Below, piece after piece: positions 18,786 to 20,095 of a stretch of DNA of 64,000 bases; position 1 is the first letter of the stretch; each line of letters opens with the position of its first letter. A program made the position numbers and the translations under genes. Location: IMG/VR virus record IMGVR_UViG_3300045988_163663, one strand, 5' to 3'. The notes beneath the pieces were generated by a model that did not search any database, was not told where the DNA came from, and worked only from the letters and a program-made list of their open reading frames with translations. This stretch comes from a virus.

Positions 18786-20095
18786 CTTTTAAAATTAAAT
18801 AATAATTTAATTACGGTTATAGTACAACTCAGTGCAGACTTAACACCATAAGGCTGAGAAATCGACCCACTCTGCGGAGATTGTAGAATGGAATATTCAA
18901 AGGATACTTTGAAATTATTTCTAAATCTTTTGTAGTGATACATTAGATTCACGCATCGAAGGATGCGGCTACGGGGAGATTGTGCTGGAATAATCGCATT
19001 TAAGGTCCTGTTCTTCTCGCTTCCATAATAGATAGCATTGTTAACAGCAATGCCGAATCCTTGTTAGGGTAAGGCTGGTAACCTTGCCAAACCAAGGAAA
19101 TACCAATAAGGAAGTTGGCAATTGATGTGGCGTAATCCACTATAAGAGAAGGTCAAGGGTCAAGTAGCCGAAATTTGCCAAGACAGTATGATATTAATTT
19201 AGTAAAAATTATTGTTAATACTATTCTGAATGGTCGGTGAAAGATAGAGGTAGTCAGTCCTCTGTAAGATTTGGCTTAGACTGGGGCAAGAAGTTATGAA
19301 GTCGCTATTCATAGCTCAGACTTGTTTCCTTACTTACCTAATAAAATGAAGATTATTAACCAGTAGGGCGAAGGTCCGTAGTATAATTGTAATTAAGTTA
19401 TTATTTAATAACTTACGATTTCCTTTCCTGTTAAAAATAAATCATTAAATGATTTATTTGAAATGAATTATGTAGATGCTAATATAGGCGGTGGCTTGCA
19501 CATTAACCCCATTGGGTAGCCAATCCCACATCGTTAGGGGCCTCTGCGGAACCTGCTCCTATGGCTGTAGGGTTCTTGCATAATCTAATTAAATAAGGTT
19601 GACTCGCCTGTTGTCCGGTGAAATGATATATCTGGAAACCGTACTGATACGTATCAGGTATTTGATTAGCGTCCTAATCTTGGTTAATTAGGTAGTGGAA
19701 CAATACGCTAAACCAGCCAGCTCTCCACTATAAATAAGCTGAATAGGGATGTTTGTGGCTCACATACCAAAAAGCCATTACCAAGTGCGGAAATAAGATC
19801 CTTGGTAGTCTCTCATATAAAGGCGTGGAAAATGAGACGTAGTGGAACGCGAAAAGGACATATAATAGGTAGAATTATTTATTTATTGTGTTAGATTATA
19901 GAATTAAAATCCTATTATTAAAAACTGTATATTTACTTCCTATTGGTAGGTATTATAAGTTTAATGGTAGGTCAAAAATTTAATATATTCCAATAGCTAA
20001 TGAACGAGGTAAGCTGAGGTACTTAGTGGTGCGGGTAGGCATAGAGGCGACCCTACAAGTGGTTAGCGGCTATGGTGTAGTTTATTTCTATTGGA
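18786..20095 (+). ncRNA. about 1.3 kb ORF-free, GC-enriched segment, candidate structured RNA or ORF-less self-splicing intron
   Basis: No ORF of 60 aa or more on the + strand. GC is clearly above the ~28% background. Many hairpins and long-range complementary segments, for example 'ctcag..ctgag', 'ctgatacgtatcag' and 'ccaatag..ctattgg'. P7-like 'cagact'/'tagtc' elements. Confidence 0.35.

Follow-up and report, generated by a model that had tools for sequence, protein, structure and literature searches.

A probable ROOL–X two-RNA module in the tRNA island of a TAG-recoded phage

A gene-free segment within a tRNA island of a 64,000-nt stretch of viral DNA (IMG/VR record IMGVR_UViG_3300045988_163663; hereafter, the window) is best explained as a module of two non-coding RNA genes, ROOL (18804–19396) and a second RNA, denoted X (~19474–20118), carried by a phage in which TAG is recoded to Gln; we assign this reading a probability of about 85%. 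X is a non-coding, conserved and structured RNA of ~645 nt, which matches no catalogued RNA family and is absent from Rfam 15. Its conserved 5′ domain is pseudoknotted, its middle varies between lineages, and a long stem closes its 3′ domain, which is again conserved. A preliminary description of the window had delineated the segment as positions 18786–20095 and treated it as a single element, listing a large phage non-coding RNA among the candidates. The RNA assignment was right, but the single element resolves into two RNAs lying side by side.

Coding status and transcriptional context of the segment

The reported absence of genes from the segment is borne out: no ATG-initiated plus-strand ORF of at least 50 aa lies within 18786–20095, with or without TAG read-through, the sole overlap being an ORF at its left edge (18690–18851), and the longest plus-strand stretch free of stops spans 81 codons if TAG is read through and 60 under the standard code. 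The non-coding stretch is thus real, but it ends ~25 nt further downstream than first proposed, at ~20118. Its GC content, also correctly noted to be elevated, is 0.369 versus 0.292 window-wide, and only 7% of 1310-nt windows are equally GC-rich. TAG recoding in this phage is real; read-through lifts the summed ORF length from 14.1k aa to 23.9k aa, and the GIY-YIG motif of the gene at 20369 reads ‘YIG*S’. The tRNA island is surrounded by phage genes and comprises the following features:

16682, 17340, 18494, 18641, 21133 and 22403: tRNA genes
17537–18106 and 21525–21971: HNH genes flanking the island
18739–18767, plus strand: sigma-70-type promoter TTGAAA-17-TATAAT, 11/12 consensus match, 37 nt 5′ of ROOL
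18804–19396, plus strand: full-length ROOL RNA (Rfam RF03087), 593 nt, 324.2 bits, E = 7e-74
19397–19473, plus strand: AT-rich ROOL–X spacer (GC 0.18) with two small hairpins (~19403–19424 and ~19433–19459)
20107–20171, no strand assigned: AT-rich 27-bp inverted repeat just past X, arms 20107–20133 and 20145–20171
20369–21127: GIY-YIG gene flanking the island, the next gene after X
22145–22257: RAGATH-33 (Rfam RF03102), in the same tRNA island

The promoter at 18739, already picked out in the preliminary description, belongs to a set of four identical cassettes in the island, of which the other three (16613, 16860 and 18438) are located ahead of tRNAs. Judging from its sequence, it is the likely start of a ROOL(+X) transcript; a single ROOL–X precursor would originate here, from which both RNAs would be released to build up during infection as stable RNAs acting in trans. 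A weaker promoter-like site in the spacer and the start of X (19458–19485; 9/12 match) could supply X with a start of its own. The −10 hexamer of this site, TAATAT, falls within GAAUAUAGG, a block conserved throughout the X family, so that initiation there would be expected to truncate the conserved helices H0 and P1. In L003, the spacer carries an 81-nt insertion. Terminator prediction between 16500 and 22700 returned no canonical intrinsic terminator for the plus strand. The inverted repeat past X, which contains another promoter-like sequence (TTGATT-17-TATAAT, 20132–20160), probably separates the RNA module from the next transcription unit, that of the GIY-YIG gene.

ROOL RNA in the upstream half

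An Rfam scan, one of the checks proposed in the preliminary description, matched ROOL at 18804–19396 and left the X half without a match. On the strength of this sequence match, the upstream RNA is clearly identifiable as ROOL: the score of the covariance model (CM) is far from marginal (324.2 bits versus a gathering score of 99.1), model positions 1–574 of 574 are covered without truncation, the blocks AUUCUGAAUG..GUGAAAG, GCUCAGACUU and GUAGGGCGAAGG are all present in the CM alignment, and non-canonical pairs are few, in keeping with the conserved, pseudoknotted multi-junction secondary structure of the family. Relatives carry ROOL copies scoring 320–323 bits, which are 93–98% identical at the nucleotide level, whereas the neighbouring 1182-aa protein is only 57–58% identical. 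ROOL is an RNA of phage and prophage tRNA islands (Weinberg et al. 2017, PMC5737381) that forms RNA-only nanocages, as determined by cryo-EM (PMC12286853), and the documented cages are those of env-120, E. faecalis and L. salivarius (PMC12286853, PMC12990946). The window copy, encoded by a phage near tRNA genes, agrees with the family in its full-length CM match and tRNA-island context and measures 593 nt versus a family mean of 581 nt; from family membership, it would be expected to adopt an ornate multi-junction fold and to assemble into a protein-free hexameric or octameric nanocage. In itself this copy is undistinguished among ROOLs. Its novelty lies in the host, a phage with recoded TAG and 29% GC, and in the fixed association with X, located 78 nt downstream.

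An ORF-less group I intron had been another candidate, based on CAGACT/TAGTC pairs likened to P7. CAGACT occurs at 18835 and 19317, and TAGTC at 19251 and 19806; these motifs are located in the ROOL RNA or scattered, and GCUCAGACUU is a conserved ROOL block. The HNH and GIY-YIG genes flanking the island could also suggest, more broadly, a degenerate or ORF-less self-splicing intron of group I or II, or a mobile-element remnant of the neighbouring homing endonucleases. We consider such an origin extremely improbable, given that intron families produced no CM match either in the window at the gathering threshold or in 19380–20350 at E ≤ 10, no split exon or flanking exon halves were found, relatives devoid of the GIY-YIG gene retain ROOL and X unchanged, and X is bounded by intact tRNAs in other phages.

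X, a family of structured RNAs from phage tRNA arrays

Searches of RNA and phage databases returned no counterpart of X. Rfam 15 yielded zero matches in 19380–20350 at E ≤ 10 and none over X in other loci (10 loci at the gathering threshold, 4 at E ≤ 5), BLAST of 19400–20150 against the INPHARED phage records gave no match, and no published description of X was found in the literature searched; the 8,495 IMG/VR candidate RNAs left unnamed in PMC10690425 may include X. Among the 56 matches of a first 16-mer scan of the collection, the real ones were only the window’s own relatives. By contrast, pattern scans keyed on CUCCUAUGGCUG and GUGAAAYGAUA, the invariance of which is partly an ascertainment effect, led to 32 viral, 12 MAG and 77 metagenome stretches with at least 84 distinct 5′ domains (240 nt), and a profile of the window’s group picked up L067 and L080 without any pattern. 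Members of the family come from contigs of large phages of the gut and rumen, where nearly all are embedded in tRNA arrays, as is the window copy. The 5′ domain of the latter contains the following elements, all on the plus strand:

19474–19715: conserved 5′ domain as a whole (CM R1 match at 19474–19713, 169.9 bits; the window sequence is part of the seed)
19478–80/19545–47: helix H0
19487–93/19529–35: helix P1
19548–57/19563–76: helix P2, capped by the invariant loop CUGCUCCUAUGGCUGWAGG
19585–95/19659–69: long-range helix P7
19616–18/19632–34: helix P4, closing the invariant loop UGAAAUGAUAUAU
19644–47/19654–57: helix P5, in an H-type pseudoknot of CGU (19640–42) with ACG (19649–51)
19673–78/19687–92: extra hairpin of the window type
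19696–98/19713–15: terminal hairpin, the loop of which (ACGCU) pairs with AGCGU at 19668–72

The positions of the pseudoknot and the terminal hairpin were read from the sequence by hand. The repeat CTGATACGTATCAG singled out in the preliminary description is indeed present, at 19644. The window sequence displays all the defining elements of the domain, namely, GAAUAUAGGCGG, P1 with its pseudoknot, P2 with its loop, P7, P4 with the loop UGAAAYGAUAUAU and the CGU/CUGA/ACG/UCAG pseudoknot, and an HMM constructed from 70 sequences outside the window’s subgroup gave one match, at 19475–19676 (E = 1.5e-37).

The characterization of the segment as ‘hairpin-dense’ finds no support in thermodynamics: minimum free energy z-scores relative to shuffles are +0.47 (19470–19880) and −1.42 (19985–20105). 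Because these values are not significant, they were dropped as evidence of structure and covariation was used instead, so that the case for structure is comparative rather than energetic. A naive all-against-all scan of column pairs for helices was swamped by false positives from G-U pairs and conserved columns, and was replaced by explicit structures with slid and shuffle controls. The comparison across related phages, also suggested at the outset, provides strong support throughout the X family. With 55 sequences aligned by MAFFT, 90.6% of the cells are paired (37–47% in slid controls), 33 of 51 pairs, three pseudoknots included, show compensatory changes, and the covariation score is 0.42 compared to 0.06–0.12 for the controls. 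Similarly, a CM alignment of 85 sequences has 93.8% of the cells paired versus ~40% in slid controls, with compensatory changes in 29 of 42 pairs, the three pseudoknots being counted apart. Several motif-based readings were discarded for lack of covariation, namely, a K-turn or C/D-box-like element in GUGAAAUGAUA...CUGA, a tetraloop receptor in CCUAUGG and an RNase P similarity via UAUGGCUGA; for the palindromic UACGUA loop, covariation favours an intramolecular pseudoknot (helix 9) over a kissing loop.

Reading frames are not conserved in X, and lengths are distributed 30/27/27 modulo 3. A 91-aa minus-strand ORF (19503–19778, with TAG read-through) and a minus-strand stop-free run of up to 123 codons might be taken to indicate that part of the segment encodes a protein; this has next to no chance of being correct because only 33% of 84 members have an open minus-strand frame across the domain with TAG read-through, and 5% under the standard code, the lengths are evenly spread modulo 3, and substitutions track base-pair covariation.

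The 5′ start of X is located 17–25 nt past a tRNA in 22 members, and 26 of 35 members have the next tRNA 451–506 nt past the 5′ motif. In phages where X lies directly between tRNAs, RNase Z or RNase E cleavage at the tRNA ahead of X and RNase P cleavage at the tRNA behind it would trim X, so that its maturation by tRNA enzymes would come for free. This embedding in tRNA arrays, with closely flanking tRNAs, is also what one would expect if X acted in cis within the tRNA operon transcript, for example as a spacer, processing platform or attenuator. We find such a role decidedly unlikely: X retains 237 conserved positions, at least nine covarying helices, three pseudoknots and several invariant loops in otherwise diverged phages, a degree of conservation far above the needs of a spacer or attenuator, and the window X has no tRNA directly 3′ but precedes a homing-endonuclease gene. 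A stable trans-acting X, in turn, would function in the tRNA/translation programme of the phage, as a ROOL/GOLLD-like scaffold or binding RNA.

The remainder of X consists of the following elements, again on the plus strand:

19716–19970: lineage-variable middle region, collinear and 80–99% identical in 14 distinct window-type sequences
19777–85/19801–09 and 19811–16/19832–37: middle helices
19911–22/19960–71: middle hairpin in an AT-rich stretch, with three compensatory pairs
19971–20118: 3′ domain of type 2, with a GAGG motif, GGGUAGG, GGCGAC and GUGUAG, supported by the match to CM R3, covariation in Ha and Hb, and window-type covariation
19973–96/20088–20109: long closing stem of the 3′ domain
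20040–44/20070–74: helix Ha, 100% paired, 4/5 pairs compensatory
20047–53/20061–67: helix Hb, with covariation

The closing stem includes the CCAATAG/CTATTGG pair of the preliminary description, which is located at 19990–19996/20088–20094, 3–4 bases away from the position given there, and encloses 91 nt. The 3′ domains of the family fall into two subtypes. A CM of the type-1 domain scored only 13.7 bits on the window (E = 0.5 at 19997–20112, with an equal score at 19815–19900) and nhmmer with the type-1 domain produced no significant match, which led us to recognize a second type and to conclude that the window is not type 1. The type-2 model, R3, built from 14 sequences, all outside the window’s subgroup, matches 20028–20084 (26.3 bits, E = 3e-4), the only match below E 0.3 on either strand of the 64 kb, this type being defined by the succession of GGUNGGUAG, Ha, GGCGAC, Hb, UAGCG, Ha′ and GAGUAG.

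Since the type-1 model misses the 3′ domain of the window, assignment of the entire stretch to one RNA is founded on collinearity within the subgroup and on the type-2 model. The region past ROOL could instead comprise two or three elements, that is, a ~240–400-nt X ending near 19870 and a separate ~140-nt hairpin RNA or a processing or terminator structure at 19971–20118. Such a division would fit the AT-rich stretch (GC 0.21) between the blocks, the low type-1 score, no higher at 19997–20112 than at 19815–19900, and the resemblance of the long perfect stem to an RNase III or terminator-like element. Nevertheless, we deem it unlikely. Collinearity of all three blocks extends across 14 distinct sequences with identities as low as 80%; the AT-rich stretch forms a hairpin in its own right, which accounts for three of the 14 pairs (out of 105) with compensatory changes in the RNAalifold structure of the window-type sequences; the type-2 core lies 484–698 nt past the 5′ motif in other members and R3 ties this core to the window; and type-1 members are single units of 450–500 nt bounded by tRNAs.

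Association of X with ROOL and comparison with known RNA classes

ROOL is located upstream of X on the same strand in 23 members of the family, 16 of which are type 2, whereas four are unclassified, three are too short and none is type 1; conversely, none of the 25 type-1 members for which 1.5 kb or more of upstream sequence is available carries ROOL. Motif-based ROOL calls were confirmed by Rfam in 15 of 15 cases. Thus, the subtype with the window’s 3′ domain may work together with ROOL. Any such partnership is not obligatory because most ROOL loci lack X (36 further ROOL-motif loci yielded a single weak X match) and because, in L136 and L155, X is not type 1, yet ROOL is absent from the sequence covered.

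The preliminary description had also considered the RNA component of a TROVE/MVP system, a candidate that gained no direct support, Y RNA, YrlA and vault RNA all being unmatched. The window does encode a true homologue of the major vault protein (MVP; Pfam Vault_3 and MVP_shoulder; PDB MVP, E = 4e-19), whereas the supposed TROVE protein belongs to DUF2828/DUF7788, with a weak VWA_2 match and no Pfam TROVE or PDB sequence match. ROOL and/or X might accordingly be imagined as the RNA part of a particle formed by these two proteins, akin to vault RNA–TEP1–MVP or Y RNA–Ro60, the more so as DUF2828 homologues with 59–61% identity share contigs with ROOL and X in several more distant phages (L067, L086, L097 and L080) and another is found on a contig with a ROOL motif (L070). 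However, the DUF2828 and MVP genes are 8.5–11 kb away from the RNA module, across tail-like genes, and the MVP homologue occurs on just one contig outside this phage group. Moreover, X and the DUF2828 gene lie ~9 kb apart in both the window and the L086 contig, so that the co-occurrence may reflect shared ancestry, as synteny predicts, rather than a functional link. A protein partner of ROOL has not been reported in published work (PMC12286853). Taken together, these observations make an RNA–protein particle of this kind very improbable.

Returning to the two-gene module, X offers a new target for structural biology, with respect to both oligomerization and ROOL binding, and a genetic handle on ROOL function, in the form of a co-inherited partner and contrasting phages that have X without ROOL. 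In several phage lineages, one X subtype immediately follows ROOL. To our knowledge, ROOL and GOLLD, both from phage tRNA islands, are the only natural RNAs known to form closed RNA-only cages, and X would add to this niche a third ornate family, of 450–650 nt, pseudoknotted and with covariation as strong as in those two. A long shot is that X represents a third class of large self-organizing phage RNAs, with type 2 serving as a dedicated partner of ROOL (cargo, cap or gate, or a subunit of a hetero-oligomeric nanocage), or that X is a ribozyme acting on phage tRNA transcripts; the boldest version would unite ROOL, X, the MVP homologue and the DUF2828/vWA protein in a vault-like ribonucleoprotein compartment. 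More generally, complex RNAs can still be profitably sought in the unannotated GC-rich gaps of phage tRNA arrays.

Among known RNAs, ROOL itself has no similarity to X (Rfam, E ≤ 10). RAGATH-33 (RF03102) and RAGATH-27 (RF03100; found in L106 and L112) are likewise orphan structured RNAs of the same phage tRNA islands, but they are small (86–113 nt), unrelated to X in sequence and not adjacent to it. Y RNAs resemble the 3′ domain of X in their long-stem structure; however, X is 5–6 times longer than Y RNA, YrlA or vault RNA and lacks the tRNA-like module, and the corresponding CMs matched neither the window nor 19380–20350 at E ≤ 10. With tmRNA and RNase P RNA, X shares a comparable size range (350–450 nt), the tRNA-cluster setting and the presumed maturation by tRNA-processing enzymes; neither was found over X by ARAGORN or Rfam, although tmRNA was detected elsewhere in L113, indicating that the method works in such a context, and inspection of X by eye revealed no tRNA-like ends or RNase P P4 consensus. 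A parallel in kind is GOLLD (RF01998), also a large ornate RNA of phage tRNA arrays, often adjoining tRNAs. Its CM gave no match in 19380–20350 at E ≤ 10 or, at the gathering threshold, in the window and 34 further X loci, X is shorter (450–500 nt; 645 nt here), and the conserved domain is the 3′ one in GOLLD and the 5′ one in X. The overall plan is nevertheless alike, GOLLD consisting, as does X, of two conserved domains with a variable linker between them (PMC12286853).

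The ORF-free segment and its ROOL RNA

The preliminary description singled out 18786-20095 as an ORF-free, GC-enriched and hairpin-dense segment preceded by a promoter. Two RNAs of a shared tRNA island are found here:

18739-18767: promoter, matching a TTGAAA-17-TATAAT cassette perfectly
18804-19396: first RNA, ROOL
about 19474-20118: second RNA, hereafter X

The segment is indeed non-coding: it contains no ATG-initiated + strand ORF of at least 50 aa even with TAG read-through, + strand ORFs starting within it under the standard code reach 31 aa at most, and the longest + strand run without a stop is 81 codons. 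Read-through is justified by the gain in summed ORF length across the window (from 14.1k to 23.9k aa) and by the GIY-YIG motif at 20369, where YIG*S is read and YIGQS expected; TAG in the window (e.g. 20369-21127) is probably read through as Gln. The GC enrichment (0.369 vs 0.292 for the window; top 7% of 1310-nt windows) and the promoter were likewise borne out, and the named inverted repeats are present (CCAATAG/CTATTGG at 19990/20088; CTGATACGTATCAG at 19644). However, single-sequence folding energies are no better than those of shuffles (z = +0.47 and -1.42), so that hairpin density is not established by thermodynamics.

Scanning the entire window against Rfam identified ROOL (RF03087; model positions 1-574; E 7e-74) at 324.2 bits, where the gathering score is 99.1, along with six tRNAs and RAGATH-33 (22145-22257). 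The window thus adds a member to an established family of ornate RNAs, roughly 580 nt long, which occur in phages and prophages, usually close to tRNA islands (PMC5737381), and assemble without protein into hexameric or octameric cages (PMC12286853; PMC12990946). The proposed reading as a group I intron is unsupported: no intron was detected in the whole window at the gathering threshold or, at E<=10, in 19380-20350, and the CAGACT taken for a P7 element belongs to the conserved ROOL block GCUCAGACUU. Six IMG/VR loci were retrieved via the 1182-aa protein encoded at 22614. In three of these, where the protein is just 57-58% identical, the block from ROOL to 20140, over the part that each locus covers, retains 86-96% nucleotide identity; in the four related loci that include ROOL, its score is 320-323 bits. 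This sequence comparison shows strong constraint on the whole block.

X, a second RNA of phage tRNA islands

Searches of 19380-20350 against 4227 Rfam families (permissive E<=10) and of the second half of the segment against 50,697 phage records (BLAST) returned no match. Loci were then gathered by the ROOL signature and searched with a profile of the second half from the window's group, which matched four more distant loci (L067, L086, L097 and L080; E 1e-13 to 3e-18) about 1.25 kb downstream of ROOL. Their alignment exposed invariant blocks, two of which were combined into a gapped pattern for wider scans. The pattern matched 32 viral stretches, on contigs mostly of 30-400 kb, 77 metagenomic stretches, and 12 stretches in a set of 185,579 species genomes, all of them in gut or rumen MAGs, mostly of Clostridia (Oscillospiraceae, Acutalibacteraceae and others), with one each from Paludibacteraceae, Mollicutes and Nanosyncoccus. 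Together, these matches represent 84 distinct X 5' domains. An HMM of 70 members outside the window's subgroup has a single match in the 64-kb window (19475-19676, E 1.5e-37), so the assignment to X is independent of the presence of the window in the seed.

Where flanking sequence exists, the start of X lies 17-25 nt past a tRNA, and in 26 of 35 cases the following tRNA begins 451-506 nt downstream of the X 5' motif. Within tRNA arrays, X thus forms a separate unit of about 450-500 nt. In several members, including loci L105, L107 and L124, it immediately adjoins suppressor tRNA(CUA) genes ('Pyl' in ARAGORN). Conserved coding potential was not found in X (lengths modulo 3 = 30/27/27).

RNAalifold applied to 18 X sequences yielded 25 pairs, with compensatory changes in 12. 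An explicit structure of the 5' domain, comprising H0, P1, P2, P7, P4, P5, P6 and three pseudoknots, was tested on a 55-sequence MAFFT alignment, with partners slid by 1-3 columns and 500 shuffles as controls; none of the 500 shuffles reached the observed values.

Table. Support for the X 5' structure, 55-sequence alignment (structure; slid partners)
Cells in standard pairs: 90.6%; 37-47%
Pairs with both-side changes: 33/51; 15-21
Cells with both-side changes: 419; 49-120
Covariation score: 0.42; 0.06-0.12

With pseudoknots left out, the structure was turned into a covariance model (R1; 237 positions, 42 pairs), which detects exactly one full-length copy in each locus (in the window, 19474-19713, 169.9 bits); in the resulting 85-sequence alignment 93.8% of cells are paired, with compensatory changes in 29/42 pairs. 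Comparative covariation, proposed as a check in the preliminary description, thus strongly supports the 5' domain (33/51 and 29/42 pairs, respectively). Its most conspicuous elements are listed below; two invariant blocks doubled as search keys, and their invariance is thus partly an ascertainment effect, but L067 and L080, found without the pattern, hold both key blocks unchanged.

Cap: CUGCUCCUAUGGCUGWAGG, 19 nt, invariant, atop a freely covarying stem
Loop: UGAAAYGAUAUAU, 13 nt, invariant, closed by P4
Compact H-type pseudoknot: CGU-CUGA-ACG-UCAG, the inverted repeat CTGATACGTATCAG; its CGU/ACG flanking pairs covary (GGU/ACC, AGU/ACU, CGA/UCG)
P7: long-range helix of 11 bp

No Rfam family was found over X in 10 loci at the gathering threshold, nor in four loci at E<=5, and no description of X was found in the literature searched; X may already figure as one of the unnamed IMG/VR candidates of PMC10690425. 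X is a new family outside Rfam 15, in kind a large ornate RNA of phage tRNA islands.

The 3' domain of X and its link to ROOL

The 3' domain comes in two types. Type 1, present in 40/84 members, consists of GGC-UACGC-AGAC...GUCU-AG-GCGUA-GAGUAG inside a covarying closing stem; its covariance model does not detect window 19990-20098 (13.7 bits, E 0.5). The 3' half of the window's own subgroup (19714-20118) is collinear in 14 distinct sequences, with identity down to 80%, and RNAalifold predicts 105 pairs, with compensatory changes in 14, including three in an AT-rich 'spacer' hairpin as well as Ha/Hb pairs. Its profile weakly matched the 3' regions of members outside this subgroup (L155, E 0.005; L136, E 0.017), from which the type-2 core was recognised:

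Type-2 core: GGUNGGUAG-Ha-GGCGAC-Hb-UAGCG-Ha'-GAGUAG
Closing stem in the window: about 24 bp, 19973-96/20088-20109, plus 7 bp, 19999-20005/20080-86

In 14 type-2 sequences outside the subgroup, helix Ha is 100% paired, with compensatory changes in 4/5 pairs. A covariance model built from these 14 only (R3) matches the window at 20028-20084 (26.3 bits, E 3e-4); across both strands of the 64 kb, no other match falls below E 0.3. Hence, the CCAATAG...CTATTGG structure corresponds to the 3' domain of X.

In 23 X members, ROOL is found upstream in the same orientation; of these, 16 are of type 2, 4 are unclassified and 3 are too short for classification, and none has a type-1 3' domain. Among type-1 members, the 25 whose upstream sequence spans at least 1.5 kb all lack ROOL. 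Rfam confirmed ROOL in 15/15 motif-positive loci tested (145-348 bits). The gap between the two RNAs ranges from about 80 nt to 1.1 kb and sometimes holds a tRNA or small ORF. In the L067/L086/L097 lineage it contains a GC-rich, ORF-free stretch of about 460 nt, which may be another structured RNA, a 123-aa ORF and tRNA-like sequence (L097 580-1040 and 1103-1474). The two RNAs do not always go together: over 36 further ROOL-motif loci, R1 gave one weak match only, and no ROOL was found in the sequence examined of L136 and L155, whose 3' domain is not type 1. In L082 (2702-2871, - strand), a weak match to the X 5'-domain model (31 bits, E 2e-7), upstream rather than downstream of a ROOL motif, may represent a divergent form of X.

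Neighbouring elements and a possible role

Other elements of the island include two HNH genes (17537-18106 and 21525-21971) and a GIY-YIG homing-endonuclease gene (20288-21132), an insertion relative to the related loci L001, L003 and L005, where X is directly followed by the tRNA found at window 21133. The promoter cassette, part of a roughly 40-nt repeat, occurs in four identical copies, at 16613, 16860 and 18438 before tRNAs and at 18739 before ROOL, with further copies across related loci. RAGATH-33 (135 bits vs a threshold of 120.4), another orphan structured RNA, adjoins tRNA-Gly and is kept in all relatives (138-140 bits). The tRNA-Gln(UUG) gene (18494-18631) carries a single-copy 66-nt insertion (18528-18593) in the anticodon loop after U35, which folds to extend the anticodon arm; it is present in loci L200 and L193 and absent in L001, L003 and L005. 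A group I intron would need far more sequence; the insertion could represent a small intron-like element or a disrupted gene, and is notable because the phage appears to read TAG as Gln. Positions 436-595 of the OLE RNA model give short (about 88-nt) matches in phage tRNA arrays, with 53 bits vs a threshold of 50 (L067 187-276; L080 2050-2137; L086 5905-5994; L097 6152-6241; L108 10084-10167). They may reflect either tRNA-like false positives or a module akin to OLE.

The suggestion that the segment encodes the RNA component of a TROVE/MVP system is a lead of low probability for ROOL, X or both. The MVP homologue is genuine (30764-33247; Pfam Vault_3 and MVP_shoulder; PDB MVP E 4e-19, residues 318-800) and adjoins a DUF2828/DUF7788 protein (28647-30185) with a weak VWA_2 match and no match among PDB sequences. 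DUF2828 homologues (59-61% identity) also occur on the ROOL- and X-bearing contigs of L067, L086, L097 and L080, and one on the L070 contig, which has a ROOL-motif match; however, this co-residence is confounded by conserved synteny, and MVP is limited to the window's phage group plus one contig. Nearby genes encode an SLH-domain protein (27159), a NADAR protein (33601), two metallophosphatases and an SPFH/flotillin protein (36663), and the MVP-DUF2828 neighbourhood may be a vault-like compartment module.

ROOL and X are neighbouring non-coding genes, both conserved and structured, and a consensus promoter precedes ROOL. A single primary transcript would start at about 18775; no + strand terminator is predicted before 20171. 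At 19458-19485 lies a promoter-like site whose -10 hexamer falls within the conserved GAAUAUAGG block of X, and a start at about 19492 would thus remove H0 and part of P1. Both RNAs would be released, in tRNA-flanked members by tRNA-processing enzymes, and would accumulate as stable trans-acting RNAs of the phage tRNA/translation programme, with cage assembly by ROOL expected from its family membership. Our best guess for X is a scaffold or binding RNA similar in kind to ROOL, to which the type-2 subtype would be functionally coupled.
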